Source: Candidatus Woesearchaeota archaeon (lineage in GTDB: Archaea; Nanobdellota; Nanobdellia; SCGC-AAA011-G17; JACPNG01). Taken from it: a DNA stretch of 64,000 bases. Numbering within the stretch: position 1 is the first letter of the stretch; every line of letters starts with the position of its first letter. The position numbers and the translations under genes were made by a program. Shown here in pieces: positions 568-58,598 of this stretch. The notes beneath the pieces are model-generated. The model did no database searches and was not told where the DNA came from. It saw only the letters and a list, made by a program, of their open reading frames with translations. The stretch spans positions 33,622-97,621 of the forward strand of contig JACPNE010000005.1 in the NCBI GenBank assembly GCA_016185615.1, read 5' to 3'.

Positions 568-1490
568 ATTTTTACAAAGAAGATAAGGAAAAAGAAGATT
601 TTTGGTTGAATAAGGAATATTTAGTTCAGTTAAATTTAACTGGAGATTGTCCACTCAGTTGTGAGTTTTGTTATATGTCCCCTCACAAAAAGGAATATCT
701 TTCTTTAGATAAGATTAAAAAATTATGGGAAAATCTAAGAAAACATTCCGAAGAAAATGAAATTGAGTATAGAGTCAATCTAACGGGGGGTGATATTTTT
801 GAGCACCCCGATTGGATAAGAATAGCAGAATTTATTTCTAATGAAAAATCAATTACTGCAGTAGATCCTTTAATAAATAAATTTTGGAATAAAGATCATT
901 TAAAATTATTAGATATTCTAAAAGATAAGATAAACTTTGTTCAACTAAATTCAGATGTGGTATCTGAAGAAGATATCGGGGCAGTTAAGAATATTGGTAA
1001 AAAAGTTGTTTTGAAAATTGCTTTATATGGGGGAAATACAAAGAAAAAAATTGAAAAATTAAGAAAACTATCAGAAGAATATGATAATATAATTATTTCT
1101 ATTGATTTAATAATTCCTCAGAAGTATAATCCTGGAAAGAAAGAGGATTATCTAATTTTTGACAAAGAAAAACTTAAAAATGAAGTTGAAAACTTAAGAA
1201 AGATTTTCGGTAAAAAACTTTGGTTGCTAAGCACAACTGTAAAAAGAGAGTATCTTAATGAAATTTATTATTGTCCAGTTCCTTTTGGCGGAGTTTATAT
1301 TATGCCTAATGGAAAAGTTGTACCTTGTTCTAGATATTCTCATTTAGATACAGGATTCAATATTGAAAATTTCGATTTAATCAAATATGTAAAAAAATAT
1401 GATAAACTTTGTTCAAATTTCTGTTTATTTGAAAATAAATATTTTCAAGAGTTTTGGGATGAAAAAGAAAATCCTAAAAACTTTTTTTGA
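552..1490 (+). CDS. Radical SAM enzyme with C-terminal SPASM/twitch-like auxiliary cluster domain
   Basis: CPLSCEFCY is a CX3CX2C radical-SAM cluster motif. C-terminal CPVPFGGVYIMPNGKVVPC fits CX12GX4C, followed by CSNFC. Overlaps the upstream ORF by 16 nt. Confidence 0.8.
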   Translation: MESSINFYKEDKEKEDFWLNKEYLVQLNLTGDCPLSCEFCYMSPHKKEYLSLDKIKKLWENLRKHSEENEIEYRVNLTGGDIFEHPDWIRIAEFISNEKSITAVDPLINKFWNKDHLKLLDILKDKINFVQLNSDVVSEEDIGAVKNIGKKVVLKIALYGGNTKKKIEKLRKLSEEYDNIIISIDLIIPQKYNPGKKEDYLIFDKEKLKNEVENLRKIFGKKLWLLSTTVKREYLNEIYYCPVPFGGVYIMPNGKVVPCSRYSHLDTGFNIENFDLIKYVKKYDKLCSNFCLFENKYFQEFWDEKENPKNFF

Positions 1491-2556: not shown

Positions 2557-3087
2557 ATGAAACAATTAACAGAAGAAAATGCAAGGGAATATGCATCCAA
2601 AAAATTTAAGGAATTGCCAGAATTAGATTTTAAATGGAATCTTATTCATTCTGAGGGAATTATAAAGATATTAAAAATTCTTTGCGAAAATAAGAATATC
2701 AATAAAACCAAATTATTTGCTTTAGCATGGATTCATGACATAGGTAAAATAATCTCTGAAGAAAATCACGCAGAATTAAGTTTAGAAGTATTAAAGAAAG
2801 ACTTTTTTCTTGATGAAGTTGACATAGATTGTATTCTTAATCATGGCTCTTTAGGAAATCCTAAAACTGAAGAAGGAAAAATTTTTAGATATGCAGATGG
2901 ATTATCTTTATTTACAAAAGAGGTCCTTATGTTTAGATTTTTTGCAGAAGCAAAGGAAGGATTTAACTTTGAAGAGATTAAAGAAAGAATTGAAAAAATT
3001 TACAAAAAATACAAATTAAATTATGCAGAATCTGAAGAAATTCTTAGACTTTTAGAAGAATTATATAAAAAGAACTTTTTTAAATAA
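2557..3087 (+). CDS. HD-domain phosphohydrolase
   Basis: WIHDIGK (H...HD motif). The start lies 2 nt after the upstream stop, consistent with the same operon. Confidence 0.6.
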   Translation: MKQLTEENAREYASKKFKELPELDFKWNLIHSEGIIKILKILCENKNINKTKLFALAWIHDIGKIISEENHAELSLEVLKKDFFLDEVDIDCILNHGSLGNPKTEEGKIFRYADGLSLFTKEVLMFRFFAEAKEGFNFEEIKERIEKIYKKYKLNYAESEEILRLLEELYKKNFFK

Positions 3088-3090
3088 AAA

Positions 3091-3106
3091 TCTTCTTTTT
3101 AGAAGA
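3091..3106 (+). terminator. Short hairpin plus T-run after the HD gene (possible terminator)
   Basis: tcttct-tttt-agaaga is a 6-bp stem with a T-rich loop, immediately 3' of the stop codon. Confidence 0.3.
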
Positions 3107-3225
3107 AAGAAGCAAAAAGACTGAAATCCCCGTTTTTTTAGAAAAAAAAGAAACACTAATTTTTTTGATTTAGACAACTTCCGCTTATGTTACAGTGTTA
3201 TATAATCTCTAGTTTAAAAGGCAAA

Positions 3226-3234
3226 ATATTTAAA
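3226..3234 (+). promoter_or_regulatory. Archaeal TATA box for tfe
   Basis: atatttaaa is centred about 29 nt upstream of the ATG at 3259, which suggests a leaderless or short-leader transcript. Confidence 0.5.
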
Positions 3235-3258
3235 CTTATTTTTCAAGAATAATAAGCT

Positions 3259-3762
3259 ATGAAACTGACAAATCAAGATGTTGAGGACTTGATGAGAGAG
3301 ATGTATGGAAAGGAGATTCTTCCATTAGTCAAATTATTGAAAGGAAAGAAAAACGTAAACGAATTTAAGATAGCTGAGAAGCTTGGAATGACCATAAATC
3401 AAGTAAGGAATATGTTCTATAAGCTACAAGAAAAAGGGTTAATTAACTCAACAAGAAAAAAGGACAAGAAAAAAGGATGGTATGTTTATTACTGGACTTT
3501 CAATGATAAAGAAGCAAGAGATTTAATTGTAGAGCACAGACAGAAGAAGATTAATGATCTTAGGAGTAATTTAGCTAGGGAGGAAGAAATAATTTATTTC
3601 ATATGCAAAAATAAGCACGTAAGGATGAGATATGATGATGCTTTGGAAAATGATTTTAGATGTCCTGAATGCGGTGAACTGTTAATAGAAGAGGATAAAG
3701 AAAAAATTCTGAGGAAAATAAGAAGCGATATTAAATCTATGGAAAAAGAGATTAATAATTAA
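3259..3762 (+). CDS. tfe: Transcription factor E (TFE alpha / TFIIE-alpha homologue)
   Basis: N-terminal winged helix (KIAEKLGMTINQVRNMFYKLQEKGLI...GWYVYYW) and a C-terminal zinc ribbon (FICKNKH...CPECG). Confidence 0.75.
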   Translation: MKLTNQDVEDLMREMYGKEILPLVKLLKGKKNVNEFKIAEKLGMTINQVRNMFYKLQEKGLINSTRKKDKKKGWYVYYWTFNDKEARDLIVEHRQKKINDLRSNLAREEEIIYFICKNKHVRMRYDDALENDFRCPECGELLIEEDKEKILRKIRSDIKSMEKEINN

Positions 3763-3764
3763 TT

Positions 3765-3792
3765 ATAGATCAATTCATAGTTTTCTTAATGA
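3765..3792. repeat. Left copy of a 28-bp direct repeat flanking the vapBC module
   Basis: tatagatcaattcatagttttcttaatg versus 4517-4544 tatatatcaattcatagttctctaaata, 24 of 28 identical. The left copy encodes the PIN C-terminus (KTMN*). Confidence 0.6.
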
Positions 3793-4174
3793 ACTCTTCA
3801 GGAGTAAGTATTTTAATATTCTTAAACTCCTTTAATCTTAACAAATGCTTATCTTGTGAGATTATGTAGTCAGCATTTCCAGCAACAGCAGTTTCAATGA
3901 AAATGTTGTCTTTCGGATCATCTTTAATTACTTCTATATTCTCTTTTGGTTCTACAATTGTAGAATTCATTATTATCAAATCAACCCATTCTTTTATCAT
4001 ATCATCCAGAAGTCTGATTTTGAAATCTTTTAATACTTTTATTATTTCTGATATCATATCTAACGAAACAATTAATATGAATCTTCCTTCTTTCCAATCA
4101 ATTATAATTTTATTAGAATCTCCTTTCCAAAATATTCCTGAAATAAAGACATTTGTATCCAAAACTACTTTCAT
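3770..4174 (-). CDS. vapC: PIN-domain toxin (VapC-like)
   Basis: MKVVLDTNVFISG N-terminus with acidic residues typical of PIN (TIGR00305-like). Overlaps the antitoxin gene by 4 nt. Confidence 0.75.
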   Translation of the reverse strand: MKVVLDTNVFISGIFWKGDSNKIIIDWKEGRFILIVSLDMISEIIKVLKDFKIRLLDDMIKEWVDLIIMNSTIVEPKENIEVIKDDPKDNIFIETAVAGNADYIISQDKHLLRLKEFKNIKILTPEEFIKKTMN

Positions 4175-4428
4175 ATTCTTGCTTTTTTTATTGCATTTTC
4201 AACATCAGCTTCAGATATACTCTTTTCTTTAGCGAATTTTTGTGTCTTCCTGAGAAGTTTGCCAAAGTTCTTGAAAGAAGGCATAGAAACCTTTTTCAGT
4301 ATTATTGTGTCTTCTTCCCCTACAACGACAAATTTTTCTCCTTCTTTTAATCCAAGCTGTTCTCTTATCTCTAAGGGTATGACTACTTGTCCTCTTGAAC
4401 TCATACTTGTTATTTCCAATTTTTCCAT
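4171..4428 (-). CDS. vapB: AbrB/SpoVT-family antitoxin (VapB-like)
   Basis: SSRGQVVIPLEIREQLGLKEGEKFVV is the swapped-hairpin AbrB/MazE signature. Lies upstream of and overlaps the PIN gene. Confidence 0.75.
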   Translation of the reverse strand: MEKLEITSMSSRGQVVIPLEIREQLGLKEGEKFVVVGEEDTIILKKVSMPSFKNFGKLLRKTQKFAKEKSISEADVENAIKKARI

Positions 4429-4516
4429 TTTTCGCTCCTAAATAAGATTATCTTACTAATAAGATTGTATTATATAAAAAGGTTGTGTTTTTAAAATAAC
4501 CTGAGATAATGTTAAT

Positions 4517-4544
4517 TATATATCAATTCATAGTTCTCTAAATA
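4517..4544. repeat. Right copy of the 28-bp direct repeat (remnant of a PIN gene 3' end)
   Basis: The reverse complement reads ...AGA ACT ATG AAT TGA, the same phase and residues (TMN*) as the intact PIN gene end, preceded by a stop codon. Confidence 0.6.
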
Positions 4545-4582
4545 TGATTATTAAGGATTGTTACTATCACTTAGTAGAAAAG

Positions 4583-4590
4583 TTTATAAA
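4583..4590 (+). promoter_or_regulatory. Archaeal TATA box
   Basis: tttataaa is centred about 25 nt upstream of the ATG at 4612. Confidence 0.5.
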
Positions 4591-4611
4591 TATAAAAGAT
4601 AGTATAGGGAT

Positions 4612-5703
4612 ATGGATAAAGAGGCTATTGGTTTATTAGAGGAGACTGTAGGAGAGGCTAGACTAGTTGATACTGGGTTGGAAGCATTAAAAGCATATGA
4701 GGAAAAAGCCCCTTCTTTTAGTCCAGAAAGAAGAAGATTTCTGAAATATTGTGCTGGATTGATTGGAACAGGAGTATTGTCTATTGGTCCTGTAAAGAAA
4801 GCAGAGGCTTTTTTGAATTTGTTTCAAAAAAGAGACTGGAAAGCTCATTTAATGGGACAAGATTTGATTCGTGGTCCTGGATTGTTGATTTGGAAGGGGG
4901 GGTCACAAGACTTTGAAAGACATTTATATCAGCCGGTAAATGAAGGGTATGGAGCAGTTGATTATGAGGTGCTAATAGGAACTCCAATCTGCCCAGTAAA
5001 CTCTGGAAGAATCTGGATCAAAAGAGAAGGTCGCGTACCTGGAATAATTCTAGAATTGCTTCATCAAAGTAATAAAGGATTAATTAGCAGTTCCTATGCT
5101 CACCTATCTAAAAGAATTATTGAGGAAAAAGGAAAAATAGTTGGACTTAGTAATATAATTGCTATGTCTGGTAATAGTGGCTATATCGAAACAGAAGAGC
5201 AACCGGAACACCTTCATCTTCAAATTTCAGATGTAAGGAACATAGGTCCGAAGAATGGTTATAAGAATTGGTATAAAACAATACCTCCTGGCTTAAATCC
5301 ATTTACCCTTGGAATAGATAGAGGAAAACCAGTTTATTGGGACACCAAGACAGAAATGGGTCCCTTCCCTTTAGATTCAAAGCAAATATATATTGAGAGA
5401 CTTATTGATAACATGCAAGAGCGAGTTAAGGAGACAGATATTGATGCTCAGACAAAAAACGAACTTTTGAAAAGAAGAAATCCAGAAGATTTGAGAAATT
5501 ACTTAGAAAAAGAAGTTTTAAAGAAAAATCAAGGTGCTGATGGAAAACTTAGTTATAAATATCTTCCAGGACATTTTATATATGGTCTAATGTTAGAAGT
5601 GTTAAATTATACTGCAAAACACGAAGGTATAGCTATGCTACCATTTCCCTACCCAATGCTTTTGGATTTTTATAAAAAAGAAAATCCAAATGTTTCATTT
5701 TAA
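4612..5703 (+). CDS. Secreted M23/LytM-like peptidase-domain protein with twin-arginine signal
   Basis: RRRFLKYCAGLIGTGVLS is Tat-like. YAHLSKRII...GNSGYIETEEQPEHLHLQI matches the M23 C-terminal HxH region. The upstream HxxxD position reads GYGAVDY, so the His is apparently replaced. Confidence 0.55.
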   Translation: MDKEAIGLLEETVGEARLVDTGLEALKAYEEKAPSFSPERRRFLKYCAGLIGTGVLSIGPVKKAEAFLNLFQKRDWKAHLMGQDLIRGPGLLIWKGGSQDFERHLYQPVNEGYGAVDYEVLIGTPICPVNSGRIWIKREGRVPGIILELLHQSNKGLISSSYAHLSKRIIEEKGKIVGLSNIIAMSGNSGYIETEEQPEHLHLQISDVRNIGPKNGYKNWYKTIPPGLNPFTLGIDRGKPVYWDTKTEMGPFPLDSKQIYIERLIDNMQERVKETDIDAQTKNELLKRRNPEDLRNYLEKEVLKKNQGADGKLSYKYLPGHFIYGLMLEVLNYTAKHEGIAMLPFPYPMLLDFYKKENPNVSF

Positions 5704-5742: not shown

Positions 5743-6102
5743 ATGAAAAAGAGGGTTAAGAATCTAAAAATTAATTATATAATATTGGTTGTTGTTGTCA
5801 TAATTTTATTGATTATTCTATTTAATATAAAAAATATTATAGCACAAAGTTCAAATTTAATTGTTACATTTAAGAATAAAATAATAACAGCTACTTATAC
5901 TCCAGAAGGGTATTATACTATTAGAAATTATGGTGGTGGTGATGGATCGGATGGTGGAGGTAGTGATAGTGCTGGGGGGGTTGGGGGATCAGCAGATAGT
6001 AGCGATGCTGGAGGAGATAGTGGAGCTGGAGGCTCTGGTGCTGGTGGTGATTCTGGCGATTCTGGTGGAGGAGATGGAGGAGATGGTGGTGACGGATTTT
6101 AA
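5743..6102 (+). CDS. Small membrane-anchored protein with Gly/Ser/Asp-rich low-complexity tail
   Basis: N-terminal TM helix (ILVVVVIILLIILF) and a C-terminal 55-aa GGDGSDGGGSDSAGG... tract. Confidence 0.4.
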   Translation: MKKRVKNLKINYIILVVVVIILLIILFNIKNIIAQSSNLIVTFKNKIITATYTPEGYYTIRNYGGGDGSDGGGSDSAGGVGGSADSSDAGGDSGAGGSGAGGDSGDSGGGDGGDGGDGF

Positions 6103-6197: not shown

Positions 6198-6887
6198 ATG
6201 GAAAAAAAGGGTGTTATATTTTTATTAATAATTATACTAATAATTGGCTCATTTATTCTTATGCTCCAATCCCAAAAATCTAATCCCGAGGAATTAACTC
6301 TAAGCAAAGAAGATAAAGAATATTTATTAGATTTAGCATATAAATCTATAAAACTTAATGTTGAGGAAAGTAAGAGATTTATTGAATTAAATCCTCCAGC
6401 CGATCTATCCAATTATAACAATGAAGTTTTTGTTAGTGTATGGTCTGATGGTGTTTTGAAAGGTTCTTATCTTGGGAATAGAAGAGATATCATGGGAAAT
6501 GTAATCACTGCTTCTATTGGAACTACTAAACATTATTTGGGAGGAATTAAAAAAGAAGATTTAGATAATCTTCATATCTATATTTATATTGTAAAAAATA
6601 AAAAATTAATTGAAGATAAATCATTAGAAAATATAGAAAAAGAGATTAATCTAGAAAAGGATTATACTAGAATACAAACTTTAGATGGAAAACATGCATC
6701 TTATTCAAATTATATTCCATCATTATACAATTTAGATCATGAGGAAACTTTAAGAAATCTTTGTTTAAAATTAGAAAGAAATTATCCTATTTTAGAAAGA
6801 TTTGATGAAAACTGCTGGAAAGATGAAGCATTTAATATTTATAAACTGGAGATGATAGAATTTGAAAAAGAGTTCATTACAAATTAA
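6198..6887 (+). CDS. Membrane-anchored hypothetical protein (weak AMMECR1-like pattern)
   Basis: N-terminal TM helix. VFVSVWSDGVLKGSYLG loosely resembles the AMMECR1 FVTL..G.LRGCIG pattern, with the Cys absent. Confidence 0.35.
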   Translation: MEKKGVIFLLIIILIIGSFILMLQSQKSNPEELTLSKEDKEYLLDLAYKSIKLNVEESKRFIELNPPADLSNYNNEVFVSVWSDGVLKGSYLGNRRDIMGNVITASIGTTKHYLGGIKKEDLDNLHIYIYIVKNKKLIEDKSLENIEKEINLEKDYTRIQTLDGKHASYSNYIPSLYNLDHEETLRNLCLKLERNYPILERFDENCWKDEAFNIYKLEMIEFEKEFITN

Positions 6888-8250
6888 TTTTCTCAAGAAT
6901 CAAAAAAAGAGTATAATTATCATAATTTTTATAATGTTTTCTTTATTTGTTCAATCTTATAATATTAATGCAGAATTATTGAAAGCAAGCTGTTGGGCTT
7001 CACCCCCACAAAATCCAGGATATGCTGATCCTAGATATATATGGACACCAGATAGGGATGGATTGACTGAATGTGTATATGATTTTGGATTAACGCCTGT
7101 ATCTGATACTAGGCCGGAAACAGTTACATTTAACTGTCCGGATAGCGTTATATGCTGTAGCACAAGGATTAATAGCGATATTACAGTTACCACTAAAGTT
7201 TTTCCTTGGTATAACATAATTCCAATTGTTGTACAGTCCCAAACACTTTCAAGATTTTCTAATTGCGGCGGAGGAAGCTGCGGATATTTAAACAGTTGTA
7301 CAAATCAATGTATATTAAAACCAGGAAATTCCTGTTTTGACGGACAGGAATCATGCAGTGGAAATAGCTATTTACTATGCTCATCATGTGGCTGGCAGAA
7401 TAGGGGAGTAACCCCTGGAAAATGTGGCATAGCCTCTAATTATGGACAGAATTGTAATCTAAATGCATGCGGACAACCAGGAGGAACAATACAAGCTAAT
7501 GGACAATGTTCTGGAGCAGTTCCAGCAGTTCCAGCAGAAGTATGTGATGGCAGAGATAATAATTGCAATGGAGCAGTTGATGAAGGATTTAGCACAGGGA
7601 CATGTACTTCTGGGGTAGGAGAATGTGCAAGAACTGGATCGTTTGTATGCCAAAGTGGAAATTCTATTTGTACTGCTGTAGCAGGAAGTCCTACAGCAGA
7701 AATATGTGACAATAAAGATAATAATTGCAATGGACAAACAGATGAAGGCTGTGATGATGACAATGATAACTATTGTGATGTTAATATTCAAATAGTTGGA
7801 ACCCCCTCTACATGTACATCTGGAGGGAATGACAGAAATGATAATGATGCTACGATTAATCCTGGAACCCAAGAGCGATGCGACGATAAAGATAATGATC
7901 AAGATGGCTCAATAGATGAAGGCTGTGATGATGACAATGATAACTATTGTGACTCTAATATACAAAAAATAGGAACCCCTTCTACTTGCACTTCATTAGG
8001 AAATGACTGTAAGGATGATAACTCAAGGATAAATCCAGGAGCTTCTGAGTGTTGTGACTTATTAAACCAATATGATGAGAACTGTAATGGCCAAATAAAT
8101 GAGATATGTGACAAAGACAGGGATGGAATAATAGATTCAACAGCGCCTTTATGTGACTCAAGCCAACAAACAATAGCAAAACAAGAGATAACCCAGACAT
8201 TAGCTATGGAAATAATAAATAGAATAAGGCTTTCATTAGGCATTAAATAA
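6862..8250 (+). CDS. Secreted cysteine-rich repeat protein (MopE-like putative metal-binding motif repeats)
   Basis: Signal/TM segment IIIIIFIMFSLFV. Repeated C-D-x-x-D-N-(N/D)-C-N-G-x-x-D-E-G-(C) and CDDDNDNYCD units. More than 60 Cys residues. Confidence 0.6.
   Translation: MKKSSLQINFLKNQKKSIIIIIFIMFSLFVQSYNINAELLKASCWASPPQNPGYADPRYIWTPDRDGLTECVYDFGLTPVSDTRPETVTFNCPDSVICCSTRINSDITVTTKVFPWYNIIPIVVQSQTLSRFSNCGGGSCGYLNSCTNQCILKPGNSCFDGQESCSGNSYLLCSSCGWQNRGVTPGKCGIASNYGQNCNLNACGQPGGTIQANGQCSGAVPAVPAEVCDGRDNNCNGAVDEGFSTGTCTSGVGECARTGSFVCQSGNSICTAVAGSPTAEICDNKDNNCNGQTDEGCDDDNDNYCDVNIQIVGTPSTCTSGGNDRNDNDATINPGTQERCDDKDNDQDGSIDEGCDDDNDNYCDSNIQKIGTPSTCTSLGNDCKDDNSRINPGASECCDLLNQYDENCNGQINEICDKDRDGIIDSTAPLCDSSQQTIAKQEITQTLAMEIINRIRLSLGIK
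7741..8059 (+). repeat. Intragenic tandem duplication, period 174 nt (58 aa)
   Basis: gatgaaggctgtgatgatgacaatgataactattgtga occurs at 7741 and 7915. The units continue with GTPSTCTS...INPG...E.CD in both copies. Confidence 0.8.
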
Positions 8251-8262
8251 TAATGATTAACA

Positions 8263-9903
8263 ATGCAACTAAAAATGAGGATAATACTTTTTTGGATTTT
8301 TTTATTGATATTAATTAATTCTAATAATATATATGCCCAATTTAAGGACAATAATACATTGGATTGTGATGATAATAATCCCAATATTTTTCCGGGAGCT
8401 ATAGAAATTTGTAATGATAATCTTGATAATAACTGTAATATGGATCAAAGCATTTTATTTGACACTGATCCAAATACAGGAAAAGACTTAAATGATATTG
8501 AATGCTGCAATTTATTGTCAGCCCAATGGTCTACATCATCAACTTCAATAGGATCATTAGTCACATTAAGTGTTACGGGAACATTTGGATGCCTTAATAC
8601 ATTAGTTAACTTTCAAGTATTTGAGGATGATACCCCACCGAATGCTGATGATGCTGTAACAAAAAATCCAACAAGTGCTACTTTCCAGAATAATACAGCT
8701 GTAACAACATGGATAGCAGAATGGCAGGATGACGGAATAGGAAATCCGGAATATTATTTCATTGCTTCTTCACAATTTGATACACAAACATCTTCTGCTC
8801 CCTTGTTGATAGTATCAGAGGGAGTAGTTGAATGCGGGGATGGAAATTTGGATTTGGGAGAAACATGTTTTAGTTGCCCTAATGATGCTGGCTGTAATAA
8901 TAATCAAACTTGCTTAAATCAAAATGATACATGGCAATGTGTTATTCCTGGAAGTAATCCTGTTTGCGGAAATAAAATTTTAGAAATTGGAGAGACTTGT
9001 TTGACATGTTCACAAGATCTTCCAACTGGATTTTGCCAGAATATCTGCAATAATAATGGGGTATGTGATATAGGAGAAACATGTTTATGTGGGGAATGTT
9101 TAGGAGAACAAAGTACTTGTATTATTGGAAATGTATGTAATCAGCAAGGATTATGCTCAATTGGAATTGATGATGGATTATGTACAGGAGATGAAGATGC
9201 AAAGAATGATGATCCTGAATGCTGCAATGTTATAAGCGCTAACTGGAATACAAATATTGCTCCTGCAAATTCATTAGTAAAATTAATTGTACAGGGCAAT
9301 GAATATTGCCAAGGAAGAGATGTTTCATTTAGTGTATTCGAGGATGAGATTGGAAGCGATACTTATGTTCCTCCAGATCCTTCACCAAAGACATTTAACA
9401 ATGAAAGCAAGGCTGAATCTGAATGGACTGTAGCTAATTTAGATGACGGATTCTTCCAGGATCAAGCTGAGTTTTACTTCAATGCTTCATCTGGAATAAG
9501 TTCAATTATATCTGAATTATTAGAAACCATTATTTGTGAGGAAGATGATAGTGATTGTGACGGAGTTAAAGACATAGATGATAAATGTCCAGATACTCCA
9601 ATAGAGGAAATCAAGAATGTAGACCCAACAGGATGTGCACAAGGAGAGGCTTCTTGTGTAATAGAATGGGATTGCTCAAATACAGTATGGAGCGAATGTA
9701 ATGAGCAAGGCTACAGAACAAGAGACATAACTAAATGTACATATAATGGAAATAATGAAATATGCAGGACAAAATTCAAGCCATTAGAGCAACAGCCTTG
9801 CTTGGTTGATGAATCATTTCCAGTATTTACAACTTATAATATAATACTATCATTATTATTCATTACAATGTATTATTTCTTAAGCCTTAAAATAAAGAGA
9901 TAA
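8263..9903 (+). CDS. Cysteine-rich surface protein with two copies of a roughly 100-aa domain and a C-terminal TM anchor
   Basis: Signal peptide. CDDNNPNIFPGAIEICNDNLDNNCN motif. Duplicated ECCN(L/V)(L/I)SA(Q/N)W...F(Q/S)VFED(D/E) domains. Three G(D/E)TC..C Myxococcus-type Cys-rich repeats. C-terminal hydrophobic helix followed by KIKR. Confidence 0.6.
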   Translation: MQLKMRIILFWIFLLILINSNNIYAQFKDNNTLDCDDNNPNIFPGAIEICNDNLDNNCNMDQSILFDTDPNTGKDLNDIECCNLLSAQWSTSSTSIGSLVTLSVTGTFGCLNTLVNFQVFEDDTPPNADDAVTKNPTSATFQNNTAVTTWIAEWQDDGIGNPEYYFIASSQFDTQTSSAPLLIVSEGVVECGDGNLDLGETCFSCPNDAGCNNNQTCLNQNDTWQCVIPGSNPVCGNKILEIGETCLTCSQDLPTGFCQNICNNNGVCDIGETCLCGECLGEQSTCIIGNVCNQQGLCSIGIDDGLCTGDEDAKNDDPECCNVISANWNTNIAPANSLVKLIVQGNEYCQGRDVSFSVFEDEIGSDTYVPPDPSPKTFNNESKAESEWTVANLDDGFFQDQAEFYFNASSGISSIISELLETIICEEDDSDCDGVKDIDDKCPDTPIEEIKNVDPTGCAQGEASCVIEWDCSNTVWSECNEQGYRTRDITKCTYNGNNEICRTKFKPLEQQPCLVDESFPVFTTYNIILSLLFITMYYFLSLKIKR

Positions 9904-54102: not shown

Positions 54103-54696
54103 CTAGAATAATCCTCTGCCTTTCTCTATATTCACTACAAATGCAGAAGTTGCATATGGGGCTGATTGTCCACTTGTTGTTATTGTTATTCCGTAAGCTG
54201 GAGTCCTTCCTAATCCAGAGGATAATGGAGCACTTGTTGTTGTAGCTACTTGAACTACAAATGTTGCTTGCTGTCCTTCATTTAAGGTTATAGAAGATTC
54301 AGATATGACTCTTGCTTCTACTACGCCAGTTGGATAGCCTGCGGGTGGCCTTGGAGTTAGTTGTAAAGAGAATGTTCTTTGTCCGCTTAGTGTTCCATCA
54401 TGTCCCACTTGAACTTTAAATGTGGTTGATTTTCCCTGTTGTACTATAACAGAAGAAGGGACTGAAATTTTTGCATCTATACTTAATGTGTCTATTATTG
54501 TTGAACCCTTTCCAAATACTTCGTCGCTTAAAGAAGTTAATTTTCCAAATATTCCTTTTGTAAAAACTAATCCTAAGGTAAGAATTGTAATTCCTATAAC
54601 AACTATGACTATTGTTGTTATGGAAAGTTCTAATGCACCCCTTTTCTTTTTATCCATTATAATCTTATTGACTGTATTATATATAAATATTTCCAC
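54103..54696 (-). CDS. Archaeal type IV pilin-like protein (class III signal peptide)
   Basis: MDKKKRG/ALELSITTIVIVVIGITILTLG is a basic stretch, a Gly cleavage-site context and a hydrophobic helix. The probable true start is the Met at 54657. The C-terminal beta-rich domain is noticeably more GC-rich. Ends in TAG. Confidence 0.5.
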   Translation of the reverse strand: MEIFIYNTVNKIIMDKKKRGALELSITTIVIVVIGITILTLGLVFTKGIFGKLTSLSDEVFGKGSTIIDTLSIDAKISVPSSVIVQQGKSTTFKVQVGHDGTLSGQRTFSLQLTPRPPAGYPTGVVEARVISESSITLNEGQQATFVVQVATTTSAPLSSGLGRTPAYGITITTSGQSAPYATSAFVVNIEKGRGLF

Positions 54697-54848
54697 TAAT
54701 ATCTTTTAAGTGGGACAGTTTGAATATATCTAGTCAATTTTTCATTGCCCCTATAAACATCAACTTGAACTAATCCTGGTTTGACACGATAGAATTCTAC
54801 TCTTGGTTTTTCTTCTCTAAACGATTTTAACAAATCTATTAGTCCCAT
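54696..54848 (-). CDS. Possible 50-aa protein, the trimmed version of track ORF 54696..54917
   Basis: The N-terminal 23 codons of the track ORF overlap the tRNA-Phe 3' exon and start at GTG. The internal ATG at 54848 gives MGLIDLLKSFREEKPRVEFYRV... Confidence 0.3.
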   Translation of the reverse strand: MGLIDLLKSFREEKPRVEFYRVKPGLVQVDVYRGNEKLTRYIQTVPLKRY

Positions 54849-54881
54849 CTTAATATTATGATTTATTTTTTTATAAAGATA

Positions 54882-55008
54882 TGGGAACGGGGTGATTGTC
54901 ATGAGATAAATTTTCACTTATCTTATTTTGAACACCCGACACCCACGGCTTCAGCGTGGTGCTCTCCCAGGTTGCTCAACATTTAATATGTTTCTGAGCT
55001 ACGTTCCC
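54882..55008 (-). tRNA. tRNA-Phe (anticodon GAA) with two non-canonical introns (D-loop about 22 nt, T-loop about 31 nt)
   Basis: Folded by hand on the minus strand. Acceptor GGGAACG/CGTTCCC plus discriminator A73. D stem GCTC/GAGC. Anticodon arm CCACG-CTGAAGC-CGTGG, with G37. Variable region GTGTC. T stem GGGTG/CACCC. Removing about 54972-54993 and about 54898-54928 gives a canonical 74-nt tRNA. Both inserts contain hairpins (AACAT/ATGTT and AGATAA/TTATCT). Confidence 0.8.
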
Positions 55009-55033: not shown

Positions 55034-55043
55034 ATTTTAAAAA
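55034..55043 (-). promoter_or_regulatory. TATA box for tRNA-Phe (divergent from the valS promoter)
   Basis: Minus strand tttttaaaat is centred about 30 nt upstream of the tRNA 5' end at 55008. Confidence 0.5.
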
Positions 55044-55088
55044 CCTTTTCATAAACTATTTAAATAATTATAAGAGAATTCTATATTA

Positions 55089-57461
55089 ATGGAACTTCCC
55101 AAGAACTATGACTTCAAGCAATCAGAAGAGAAATGGATAAAATATTGGGAAGAAGAGGGGATCTATAAATTTGATCCAAATAGTAAAAAACCAATTTATT
55201 CTATAGATACTCCACCCCCGACTGTTTCTGGAAAAATGCATATGGGGCATGCTAGCTCTTATTCACAGATGGATTTCATTGCTAGATATAAAAGAATGAA
55301 AGGGTTTAATCTGTTCTATCCGTTTGGAACAGATGACAATGGTTTGCCTACAGAAAGATTAATCGAAAAGGAAAAAAAAGTCAGAAGCGTTGAGATGGAC
55401 AGGGATGATTTCATAAAACTCTGTCTGGATACATTGAATGAGATTCGTCCAGGATTTATTAAAGATTGGAAAAAGATAGGAATAAGCTGTGACTTTAAAA
55501 TATTTTATTCAACAATAGATGCTCATTGCAGAAAGATTTCCCAGAGAAGCTTTATTGAATTATATAATATGGGAAGAGAGTATAGGATGTTAGCCCCAAC
55601 AATATGGTGTCCGGAATGCCAGACAGCAATAGCTCAGGTTGATTTAAGGGATGAGGAAAAGCAATCTCATTTTAATGATGTTATATTCAAAGTTGATAAT
55701 GAAGATATAGTTATAGCAACCACACGTCCAGAATTATTGCCAGCATGTGTAGCTGTCTTTTATCATCCTGAAGATAACAGATACAAAAAATACAAAGACA
55801 AGAAAGCAAAAGTTCCTTTGTTTAATTATGAAGTGCCAATATTAGAAGACTCAAGAGTAGATCCAGAAAAAGGAACTGGAATTGTAATGTGCTGTACTTT
55901 CGGAGATCAAACTGATATTGAATGGTATAAATCATTTAACCTTCCTTTGAAAAAAGCAATTACAAAAGACGGGAGAATGACAGAGATAGCTAAGGAATAT
56001 AAAGGATTAAAAATAAAGGATGCAAGAAAAAAAATTATAGAAGACCTAAAGAAAAATAATTTATTAGTAAAACAACAGGAGATAAAGCATACTGTTAATG
56101 TTCATGAAAGATGCGGAACAGAGATTGAAATTCTAGAATCTTATCAATGGTTTATTAAATATCTTGATTTAAGGGATCAATTATTAAGATATGGCTCGGA
56201 GCTAAAATGGTATCCTGAGTTTATGAGACACAGATATGATAACTGGGTCAAGGGATTACAGTGGGATTGGTGCATTTCCAGACAAAGGCATTTTGGAATT
56301 CCATTTCCAGTTTGGTATTGCAAAAATTGCGGAGAGATAAAATTAGCTGAGGAGCATGAATTGCCGGTTGATCCATTGACAAATACCCCAAAGACACAAT
56401 GCAAATGTGGAAGCATAGATTTTGAACCTGAGAAAGATGTTTTGGATACATGGGCTACTTCTTCATTAACTCCGCAATTATCTATTGAGTTATTTAAAAA
56501 TAATGAAATAAAATCAAAATTATTTCCTATGAATTTAAGGCCCCAAGCTCATGATATAATTACTTTCTGGCTTTTTAATACAGTTGTAAAGTCAAGATTA
56601 CATTATAATAAAAATCCATGGCATGATGTTTCAATATCAGGATTTGTACTGGATCCGCATGGAAGAAAAATGTCTAAATCTCTTGGAAATGTTGTTGAAC
56701 CCCAATCAATTGTGGATAAGTATGGGGCAGATGCACTAAGATTCTGGGCTGCTTCAGTTAAGCTTGGAGATGATATTCCTTATCAAGAAAAAGAGATTGT
56801 AACAGGACAAAAGACTGTTGTAAAATTATGGAATGCCTCTAAATTTTGTATACAACACCTAGAGGATTATAATAAGGAAAGTGTTAAATTAGAAGAGATA
56901 GATAAATGGCTATTGAACAGATTGGATTATATTGTGAAAATTTCAACTGAGAATTTTGAAAGATATGAATATTCAAAGACTAAAGCAGAGACTGAAAATT
57001 TCTTTTGGAATATCTTTTGTGATTACTATTTGGAGATTGTCAAGGATAGATTGTATAATCCAGATAAAAGAGGAGAAGAATCAAGAAAATCCGCACAATA
57101 CACATTGTATAAATCATTGTTGACAATACTAAAATTATTCTCGCCCATAACTCCTTTTATTACAGAAGAGATTTATCATTTATACTTTAATGAAAAAGAA
57201 AATAAGAAAAGCATTCATCTCGAGACATGGCCTTTCCCGGATAAAGCTGATACGAGCTTGGATGTTATGGGAAATTTATTCATTGATGTCGTATCAAGAG
57301 TTAGAAAATTCAAGACTGAAAATCAAAAGACGTTAAAGGAAAGCATTGAATTGACCTTGCCAGAAGAAGAGATAAAAATTTTGTTTAATTCATTGGAAGA
57401 TCTTAAAGCTGTTACAAATTCTAGAGTAATAAAAGAAGGAAAGTTTAAGATTAGTTTTTAA
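55089..57461 (+). CDS. valS: Valyl-tRNA synthetase
   Basis: Class Ia motifs PPPTVSGKMHMGHA and KMSKSLGN. TTRPELLPACVAV and GTGIVMCCTFGD are editing-domain motifs typical of archaeal ValRS. Confidence 0.85.
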   Translation: MELPKNYDFKQSEEKWIKYWEEEGIYKFDPNSKKPIYSIDTPPPTVSGKMHMGHASSYSQMDFIARYKRMKGFNLFYPFGTDDNGLPTERLIEKEKKVRSVEMDRDDFIKLCLDTLNEIRPGFIKDWKKIGISCDFKIFYSTIDAHCRKISQRSFIELYNMGREYRMLAPTIWCPECQTAIAQVDLRDEEKQSHFNDVIFKVDNEDIVIATTRPELLPACVAVFYHPEDNRYKKYKDKKAKVPLFNYEVPILEDSRVDPEKGTGIVMCCTFGDQTDIEWYKSFNLPLKKAITKDGRMTEIAKEYKGLKIKDARKKIIEDLKKNNLLVKQQEIKHTVNVHERCGTEIEILESYQWFIKYLDLRDQLLRYGSELKWYPEFMRHRYDNWVKGLQWDWCISRQRHFGIPFPVWYCKNCGEIKLAEEHELPVDPLTNTPKTQCKCGSIDFEPEKDVLDTWATSSLTPQLSIELFKNNEIKSKLFPMNLRPQAHDIITFWLFNTVVKSRLHYNKNPWHDVSISGFVLDPHGRKMSKSLGNVVEPQSIVDKYGADALRFWAASVKLGDDIPYQEKEIVTGQKTVVKLWNASKFCIQHLEDYNKESVKLEEIDKWLLNRLDYIVKISTENFERYEYSKTKAETENFFWNIFCDYYLEIVKDRLYNPDKRGEESRKSAQYTLYKSLLTILKLFSPITPFITEEIYHLYFNEKENKKSIHLETWPFPDKADTSLDVMGNLFIDVVSRVRKFKTENQKTLKESIELTLPEEEIKILFNSLEDLKAVTNSRVIKEGKFKISF

Positions 57462-57506: not shown

Positions 57507-58598
57507 ATGAATCAAAAGCAGAAGATAAAACTAAGGAAATTAATAAATGAATTATCCTCAATAAAGGGTAGACATACTGAATTAGTTTCTGTTTATGTTC
57601 CTTCTGGCTATGACCTAATAAAAGTTATACAGCATCTTGAGCAAGAGAAAGGAACAGCTTCCAATATAAAAGATGCCAGAACAAGAAAAAATGTTATTGA
57701 CTCTTTAGAAAGAGCTATAAGACATTTAAGAATGTATAAAAGAACACCTGAAAACGGATTGGCTGTTTTCGCAGGAAATGCATCAGATAATGAATCAAAG
57801 ATTGATATTAAAGTCTGGGGCATTGAACCCCCTGAACCAATAAACACAAGATTATATCGATGCGATCAGACTTTTATTACAGATATTCTTAGAGATATGA
57901 TGGAGACAAGAGAGATATATGCCCTATTAGTTATGGATGCAAGGGAAGCCACAATCGGATTATTAAAAGGAAATTCTATCCAAGAGTTAGTTACATTAAC
58001 CTCTGGAGTTCCAGGAAAGGTAAAGGCTGGGGGACAATCAGCAGCTAGATATGCCAGATTAAGGGAAGGGGCATTGAAAGAATTTTTCACAAGAATTGGG
58101 GAGGCAATGAATCAAAATTTTCTTGAGATGAAAGAGTTAAAAGGAATAATGATCGGAGGTCCAATTCCGACAAAAGACGAGTTTTTTGATAGTAAATATC
58201 TAAATAATGAACTAAAAAAGAAAGTGATAGGAGTAAAAGACTTAAGTTATACAGGAGAATTTGGATTGCAAGAATTAGTTGATAAAGCCCAGGATATATT
58301 GGTTAAGGAAGAATCAGCAAAAGAAAAAGCATTATTACAAAGATTTTTTGAGACACTTGGAAAAAGCAGAAAGATGGTAGCTTATGGAAAAGAAGAAGTG
58401 AATAAAGTTCTTGATATGGGTGCTGTTGATATATTATTAATAAGTGAGGAATTAAGTGACAAAGAGATTGAGGAGTTTGAAGAGAAAGCCTCAAATGTGG
58501 GCACAACAACACATGTTGTCTCAACAGAAAGCAGGGAAGGCAAACAGCTTAAGGATTTAGGCGGTGTTGTGGCAATTTTAAGATATCCAGTTGAGTAA
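57507..58598 (+). CDS. prf1: Peptide chain release factor aRF1
   Basis: GGQS motif (KAGGQSAARY) and domain 1 TASNIKD, where the canonical sequence is NIKS. Confidence 0.9.
   Translation: MNQKQKIKLRKLINELSSIKGRHTELVSVYVPSGYDLIKVIQHLEQEKGTASNIKDARTRKNVIDSLERAIRHLRMYKRTPENGLAVFAGNASDNESKIDIKVWGIEPPEPINTRLYRCDQTFITDILRDMMETREIYALLVMDAREATIGLLKGNSIQELVTLTSGVPGKVKAGGQSAARYARLREGALKEFFTRIGEAMNQNFLEMKELKGIMIGGPIPTKDEFFDSKYLNNELKKKVIGVKDLSYTGEFGLQELVDKAQDILVKEESAKEKALLQRFFETLGKSRKMVAYGKEEVNKVLDMGAVDILLISEELSDKEIEEFEEKASNVGTTTHVVSTESREGKQLKDLGGVVAILRYPVE

Follow-up and report, generated by a model that had tools for sequence, protein, structure and literature searches.

Does the minus strand of this archaeal contig carry, between positions 55008 and 54882, a working tRNA-Phe(GAA) gene interrupted by two introns, or only the remains of one? 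[quoted passage not shown] Direct reading bears out the tRNA elements at the coordinates proposed. The acceptor strand GGGAACG (55008-55002) faces CGTTCCC (54889-54883), with the discriminator A at 54882; the D stem GCTC/GAGC has 31 nt between its strands, the T stem GGGTG/CACCC has 38 nt, and the anticodon arm CCACG-CTGAAGC-CGTGG is unbroken. On the analyses below, which start from sequence, we put at roughly 0.85 the probability that this is a spliced, functional tRNA-Phe(GAA) gene with two protein-spliced bulge-helix-bulge (BHB) introns in a Woesearchaeota-type DPANN host.

Read along the minus strand, the locus runs GGGAACGUAGCUCAG, intron 1 (AAACAUAUUAAAUGUUGAGCAA), CCUGGGAGAGCACCACGCUGAAGCCGUGGGUGUCGGGUGUUCAAA, intron 2 (AUAAGAUAAGUGAAAAUUUAUCUCAUGACAA) and UCACCCCGUUCCCA. 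Exon 1 (54994..55008; tRNA positions 1-15) comprises the acceptor 5' strand GGGAACG, U8 and A9, the D-stem 5' strand GCUC, and A14 and G15, and all 15 of its nucleotides are the same in the orthologue of the closest relative, locus L001. Exon 2 (54927..54971; positions 16-59) completes the D arm and holds the anticodon arm CCACG-CUGAAGC-CGUGG with anticodon GAA and G37, the variable loop GUGUC, the T-stem 5' strand GGGUG and U54-A59, while exon 3 (54882..54895; positions 60-73) supplies U60, the T-stem 3' strand CACCC, the acceptor 3' strand CGUUCCC and A73. The CCA end is not encoded. Excision of 22 nt and 31 nt leaves a 74-nt RNA that ARAGORN calls as tRNA-Phe(GAA), a perfect cloverleaf with all stems perfect, and this product is exactly the one that had been predicted from excision of 54972-54993 and 54898-54928. 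The bases G20, G34-A35-A36 and A73, which we take to be the tRNA-Phe identity elements, are all present, as is G37. The exons have a GC content of 62% versus 30% for the window, and the 127-nt precursor folds with a z-score of -4.5 and keeps its acceptor stem. All three exons follow one another in order on a single strand, inside 127 nt, and a split or permuted tRNA gene is ruled out by this arrangement at a single locus. Within the 64 kb, the gene has the sole GAA anticodon arm and the sole interrupted T arm attached to a tRNA; the other match of the interrupted-T-arm scan, at 2398, falls inside a PPDK-domain open reading frame (ORF) at 1815-2555.

Judged by its genes, the host is a Woesearchaeota-type DPANN archaeon. 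Relatives were collected in a scan anchored on valyl-tRNA synthetase (ValRS), one genome per species, and the best matches are metagenome-assembled genomes (MAGs) of Woesearchaeota and Nanoarchaeia (DPANN). The best relative, L001, is 81% identical in ValRS, 82% in aRF1 and 75% in CysRS, and the neighbours of the tRNA in the window are the archaeal housekeeping genes ValRS, aRF1, CysRS and ScpB. With these DPANN matches and the low GC of the window, the host is not one of the Thermoproteales, which the first-pass annotation had named among the archaea best known for such introns. The ValRS gene (55089..57461, plus strand, identified by Pfam) is the divergent neighbour of the tRNA and provides the anchor for synteny. 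L001, L012 and L017 each have an uninterrupted tRNA-Phe(GAA) at this position, about 90 nt upstream of ValRS and divergent from it. Because these orthologues are intron-less at the same place, the exon boundaries of the window gene are fixed without a structural model.

We therefore placed the BHB model at the cut sites that homology dictates. In the model, a central helix (H) of 4 bp has a 3-nt bulge on either side, the two lying on opposite strands, and each bulge is cut after its second nucleotide; the outer helix on the exon side is termed h and the helix on the intron side h'. Intron 1 (54972..54993, minus strand, 22 nt) interrupts the D loop at 15/16 and allows a single possible cut pair. 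At this pair G10-C13 forms all four central-helix pairs with the intron sequence GAGC, which is a decoy for the D-stem 3' strand, the bulges are AGA and AAC, and the intron helix AACAU:AUGUU extends over 5 bp; an outer helix is missing, so that the junction carries a relaxed HBh' motif. Shuffled D inserts reproduce this geometry in about 1e-5 of trials, and a control in which the register is shifted by one nucleotide loses the fit in all sequences.

The placement of intron 1 is further supported by its occurrence elsewhere. A metagenome scan with fixed exon sequences around 15/16 of tRNA-Phe and an unconstrained gap of 12-42 nt identified 16 other contigs with a 15/16 intron, and every one (16/16) fits the same HBh' register. 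Six of them are low-GC and Woesearchaeota-like, several sharing the CysRS neighbourhood or orf197, a gene found downstream of the tRNA, and ten are high-GC (48-66%, nine of these 54-66%). The intron helix h' varies among the contigs, with AACAU/AUGUU, UAACU/AGUUA, AAAUC/GAUUU, AGGCU/AGCCU, AGCG/CGCU, GGCG/CGCC and others. In a junction-trimmed alignment of the 17 sequences, five out of five h' pairs show double-sided changes, and the covariation score of 0.484 compares with 0.18 after shuffling (0/500 shuffles reach the observed value) and with at most 0.068 in slid registers. The 15/16 intron of L094, the second-closest relative by CysRS (61%), is near-identical to that of the window, and the closest relative, L001, has none; this pattern suggests that the intron was inherited and then lost in the L001 line. 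In the best explanation, the 15/16 intron belongs to tRNA-Phe as a feature that is old and shared widely. We also note that the high-GC archaeal contigs with an HBh' intron at 15/16 of tRNA-Phe(GAA) (L084-L086, L089-L093, L095 and L096) make up a group unrelated to the window's lineage, with the acceptor sequence GCCARGG and the intron end CUGGGAAR.

Intron 2 (54896..54926, minus strand, 31 nt) interrupts the T loop. Three T-loop cut pairs yield an identical mature RNA, and the register test fits a BHB to 59/60 only; the cuts at 57/58 and 58/59 are rejected because neither gives a BHB. The first-pass annotation had put this intron at about 54898-54928, equivalent to 57/58, and was right about the mature product; its placement gives way to 54896-54926. 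At 59/60 the T stem serves as a 5-bp outer helix, and the central helix pairs U55 with A, C56 with G and A57 with U, next to a mismatch of U54 with C. The bulges are AAA and AAU, and h' consists of 1+8 bp around an A.C mismatch (9/10 pairs), closed by a GAAA loop. The junction check that had been proposed thus returns HBh' at 15/16 and hBHBh' with one mismatch at 59/60. Shuffled T inserts reproduce the latter geometry in about 5e-5 of trials. An excise-and-rescan search over all loci found 59/60 introns of the same architecture in the tRNA-Ser(UGA) and tRNA-Glu(CUC) of L057, in which the T stem is h, U54-U55-C56-R57 forms H, and the bulges AAN and ANU are cut in the same manner. These two genes belong to a cluster (L057:7250-7720, plus strand) in which nearly every tRNA gene is interrupted: tRNA-Met has a 51-nt intron, tRNA-Ser(UGA) and tRNA-Glu(CUC) carry strict hBHBh' motifs at 59/60, and a tRNA-Ser(CGA) lies further downstream. 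The MAG is a DPANN genome despite its label 'uncultured Methanosarcinales'.

Several observations weigh against a gene with two spliced introns. Intron 1 has no outer exon helix, and the central helix of intron 2 has three of four pairs. For the T arm folded on its own, the BHB conformer is 3.5 kcal/mol above the minimum free energy (MFE) structure, with a Boltzmann weight of about 0.2%, and the precursor with both BHBs folds at -36.2 kcal/mol versus an MFE of -43.2 kcal/mol. We found no orthologous tRNA-Phe with a T-loop intron, hence covariation lends intron 2 no support. Neither EndA nor RtcB was detected in the window by Pfam among about 60 non-nested ORFs of at least 110 amino acids (aa), and a regular expression for catalytic motifs had no match in the window or in any of the loci, which is a weak negative. 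According to PMC3239211 and PMC5829648, only an EndA of broad specificity cuts relaxed motifs efficiently. The search for other tRNA-Phe copies covered the 64-kb window. Finally, the splicing of both introns is inferred from the sequence.

Those of these points that touch the T loop could be taken to mean that the gene is real and its D-loop intron spliced, with a T-loop insert that is recent and poorly or not spliced, leaving the gene impaired or newly dead while another tRNA-Phe copy serves the cell. Besides the mismatch and the folding energy, this view can draw on the absence of the T-loop insert from all 16 other contigs with a 15/16 intron and from every syntenic orthologue, L001 included. 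We nevertheless consider it improbable. Compared one position at a time, the geometry of intron 2 agrees with that of the L057 introns at 59/60, and the shuffles make a chance match very unlikely. The tRNA-Ser(UGA) of L057, with a perfect central helix at 59/60, likewise does not adopt the BHB as its MFE structure; because this perfect intron behaves alike, the folding energy of the T arm is a caveat and not a refutation. Relaxed motifs with imperfect helices have also been accepted as substrates (PMC3239211). Moreover, the exons on both sides of the T-loop insert are intact, and the change that the T stem shows against L001 is compensated.

The unspliced locus escapes standard finders, as the first-pass annotation had warned. 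ARAGORN makes no call on it with or without its intron mode, and the Rfam tRNA model has no match at the gathering threshold or at E<=10; weak Rfam matches to CRISPR-DR66, SNORD21 and psRNA6 (E 0.5-2) are noise in AT-rich sequence. In a search for further hidden tRNAs in the window, 115,452 BHB-like candidates were excised singly and passed to ARAGORN, which returned only artefactual tRNA-Arg variants. We also note that the intron mode of ARAGORN mis-calls the interrupted tRNA-Phe(GAA) genes of L002 and L013 as tRNA-Leu.

The silence of the finders would also be expected of a decaying tRNA pseudogene that has taken two insertions and whose BHB-like pairings are incidental, and such a reading can also point to a search for a second tRNA-Phe that covered the 64-kb window. 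The pattern of substitution speaks against such decay. The spliced tRNA differs from that of L001 at seven positions: three fall in loops, the other four make up two compensated stem pairs (28:42 and 52:62), and every stem pair stays intact; relative to L012, L017 and L032 there are 14-16 stem differences, nearly all double-sided. Because the stem differences are compensated and no pair is broken, the tRNA appears to be under selection and not a pseudogene. The gene also occupies the place held in relatives by a single tRNA-Phe beside ValRS, orf197 and CysRS. It further retains a putative archaeal promoter (55034..55050, minus strand), made up of the TATA box TTTTTAAAAT at 55043-55034, which the first-pass annotation had located correctly, and a purine-rich sequence, GAAAAGG (55050-55044), resembling a B recognition element (BRE). 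The TATA box has its centre some 30 nt upstream of tRNA position 1; the same box, TTTTTAAAAT, precedes the L001 orthologue, and TTTAAA-type boxes lie at an equal distance in L012, L013, L017 and L032, in keeping with a predicted promoter function for 55034-55050. Given in addition a D-loop intron that is conserved and covaries in 16 other contigs, and inserts whose geometry almost never arises on shuffling, a pseudogene is in our view even less probable than a gene impaired by its T-loop insert.

It may also be asked whether the arrangement is an assembly or chimerism artefact, or whether the region belongs to a protein-coding gene, since the host is uncultured and known from metagenome-derived assemblies only, and a mechanical 73-aa ORF with a GTG start (54696..54917, minus strand) overlaps exon 3 and part of intron 2. 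Three assemblies, made independently from different runs, have the same sequence over a 249-nt region, and because of this identity an assembly artefact is excluded. No Pfam family matches the ORF, and among 96 related loci a homologue was found only on contigs of the same strain. An in-frame ATG at 54848 would give a protein of 50 aa that does not overlap the tRNA, and because public gene calls start at this ATG, downstream of the tRNA, the overlap is spurious. The first-pass annotation had dismissed the whole ORF as a spurious one masking the tRNA; the point holds for the 5' extension alone, which is what overlaps the tRNA, and the 50-aa part is a putative gene. Either form of this explanation is hardly credible. 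The original proposal of two non-canonical BHB-type introns in one gene is instead upheld by the BHB register at both junctions, the covariation of intron 1, the 59/60 analogues in L057, the compensated exons and the three assemblies. By the tests available, the locus appears to belong with the archaeal tRNA genes that carry multiple non-canonical BHB introns.

If this is so, expression of the gene may be pictured as follows. The BRE/TATA promoter about 30 nt upstream would give rise to a pre-tRNA of at least 127 nt. In this precursor G10-C13 could pair with a decoy, GAGC, at the 3' end of intron 1, forming the HBh' motif at 15/16 beside the hairpin AACAU/AUGUU, and, between the T stem and the hairpin of intron 2, U55-A57 could pair with a UGA close to the 3' end of this intron, presenting the bulges at 59/60; both motifs can be read in the sequence, the second with its one mismatch. 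By the established archaeal pathway, EndA would then cut the four bulges and an RtcB-type ligase would join the three exons, after which end-trimming and CCA addition would complete the 74-nt tRNA. The translation-related genes in the window are those for Cbf5/TruB, an AspRS/AsnRS-type synthetase, GatA, GatB, ProRS, CysRS and ValRS.

TRNA genes with multiple introns and non-canonical BHB motifs are said to have been described in Thermoproteales and Thaumarchaeota by Marck and Grosjean in 2003 and by Sugahara et al. in 2007 and 2008. The window gene resembles these cases in having short introns outside 37/38 with strict or relaxed BHB motifs, in being missed by default finders, and in belonging to a gene whose intron positions turn over between related genomes. 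It differs from these TACK cases in its low-GC DPANN host and in showing, in the sequences compared, no sign of intron-sequence families or transposition. Apart from three contigs of the same strain that carry the same locus, neither the window nor the other 96 loci contain further copies of intron 1 or intron 2, and the exact T-loop junction was not found in viral contigs; on these negative searches, nothing points to a family of mobile introns. Genes of this kind have been reviewed (PMC4090602, PMC4033280, PMC8450103), and archaeal tRNAs are known with up to three introns each (PMC3239211, PMC8450103). Position 15/16 does not appear in the open-ended position list of PMC4090602, and tRNAscan-SE 2.0 uses BHB models whose training drew on other phyla (PMC8450103).

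The closest parallels to the individual introns come from ARMAN-2 and Methanopyrus kandleri. In ARMAN-2 (Ca. Micrarchaeum, DPANN), pre-tRNA-Cys(GCA) has a 59/60 intron and pre-tRNA-Pro(GGG) has introns at 53/54 and 59/60, and the relaxed 59/60 motif of the tRNA-Cys is cleaved in vitro (PMC3239211). The window gene shares with ARMAN-2 the DPANN host, a T-loop 59/60 intron with the T stem as outer helix, and the presence of two introns in one tRNA. Unlike the ARMAN-2 tRNA-Pro, its partner intron lies in the D loop at 15/16 and not at 53/54, and the isoacceptor differs. The enzymes may differ as well: ARMAN-2 has an epsilon2-type EndA, whereas PMC5829648 reports an alpha4 EndA with an extra L3 loop for DPANN lineages that include one Woesearchaeota genome. 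The same paper describes more tRNA gene disruption and incomplete predicted tRNA sets in these lineages, and states outright that disrupted tRNA genes not yet identified are to be expected in DPANN. It also describes a pre-tRNA-Glu(UUC) of M. kandleri with a relaxed HBh' D-loop intron and a canonical intron. The window gene likewise combines a relaxed HBh' intron in the D loop with a second intron, but lineage and tRNA differ, as does the D-loop site, which the A21-G37 fragment given there for M. kandleri implies to be about 20/21; by the same source, the second intron of M. kandleri is the canonical one at 37/38, while that of the window gene is at 59/60.

Comparison of the tRNA-Phe genes themselves shows a variety of intron states: none, 27/28, 46/47, 15/16, 15/16 with 37/38, and 15/16 with 59/60. 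The tRNA-Phe of L002, syntenic with the window gene, is interrupted in its anticodon stem, at 27/28, by an HBh' intron of 19 nt (3608-3702, minus strand). That of L013 has a 30-nt HBh' intron at 46/47 (678-784, minus strand) and lies about 3.2 kb from ValRS, so that it is not strictly syntenic, and that of L087 has introns at 15/16 and 37/38. Because the clade shows 27/28, 46/47 and 15/16 with 37/38 besides the other states, intron positions in this gene appear to turn over quickly. The 59/60 intron of tRNA-Phe is seen in this lineage only, being absent from L001, despite a ValRS identity of 81%, and from every other contig with a 15/16 intron. As a tentative view, to which we give somewhat less than even odds, the orthologous Woesearchaeota-like tRNA-Phe genes may form a natural time series that records how BHB introns are gained and lost, in which the 59/60 intron would be a very recent gain and 15/16 a site that is either ancient or targeted again and again, and that an unrelated group of high-GC archaea shares. 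Three aspects may be new: the combination of 15/16 and 59/60 introns in tRNA-Phe, the wide conservation of the 15/16 intron, and the quick turnover of intron sites in one orthologous Woesearchaeota gene.

The surroundings of the tRNA offer further observations. The 50-aa ORF (MGLIDLLKSF..., 54696-54848, minus strand) sits between the tRNA and the conserved orf197, and because the orf197 homologue abuts the tRNA in L001, the segment of about 190 nt that holds this ORF looks lineage-specific. No Pfam family matches the product of orf197 (54103-54696, minus strand, 197 aa), whose N-terminus, KKRGALELSITTIVIVVIGITILTLGLVF, is similar to a class III (pilin-like) signal peptide of archaea. Directly downstream of tRNA-Phe, the gene is conserved in L001, L002, L012 and L017, with weaker partial matches (32-79 aa) in L081, L083, L088 and L094, the last of these about 1 kb from the tRNA. 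On the other side, the aRF1 gene of L012 (6387-7862, plus strand; Ca. Woesearchaeota RIFCSPHIGHO2_01_FULL_39_22) contains an in-frame insert of 130 aa just after the catalytic motif GGQ, running from C to VVHN between AGGQ and S, which scores 36.8 bits against Pfam Intein_splicing (cut-off 35.8) and looks like a release-factor mini-intein; the aRF1 of the window (57507-58598) is without such an insert. Farther away, a 166-nt GC-rich (58%) array of GGT/GAT/AGT-type repeats at 5932-6097 (plus strand), within ORF 5743-6102, presumably encodes a low-complexity segment rich in Gly, Ser and Asp, and the next two large ORFs (6862-8250 and 8263-9903) have MopE-type metal-binding motifs.

Two observations concern the synthetase used as anchor. 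In L094 a class I synthetase beside aRF1 (2748-5057, minus strand), presumably ValRS by position, is 37.5% identical to the window ValRS, far below the 61% of its CysRS and the 62% of its aRF1, and because of this discrepancy a synthetase gene replacement in the window or L094 lineage is suggested. In addition, many MAG records named 'uncultured Methanosarcinales archaeon', with one Acidobacteriota and one Hydrothermarchaeota record, have a ValRS 50-65% identical to the Woesearchaeota type, and at least L004 and L057 among them appear at full length among the DPANN-like loci anchored on ValRS; the taxonomic labelling of such records seems unreliable.

This locus leaves unchanged what is known of the way archaeal tRNA introns work. 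It would, however, be a case of the disrupted tRNA genes expected in DPANN, whose genomes often seem to be missing some tRNAs; the region's only tRNA-Phe is invisible to ARAGORN and Rfam. If it is true that these DPANN archaea have only an alpha4 EndA with the L3 loop, the gene would be a substrate showing that this enzyme handles a D-loop HBh' motif. The set of tRNA-Phe orthologues, with introns at five canonical or non-canonical sites, would offer snapshots of intron gain and loss, and may at the same time provide defined substrates for the specificity of DPANN EndA.

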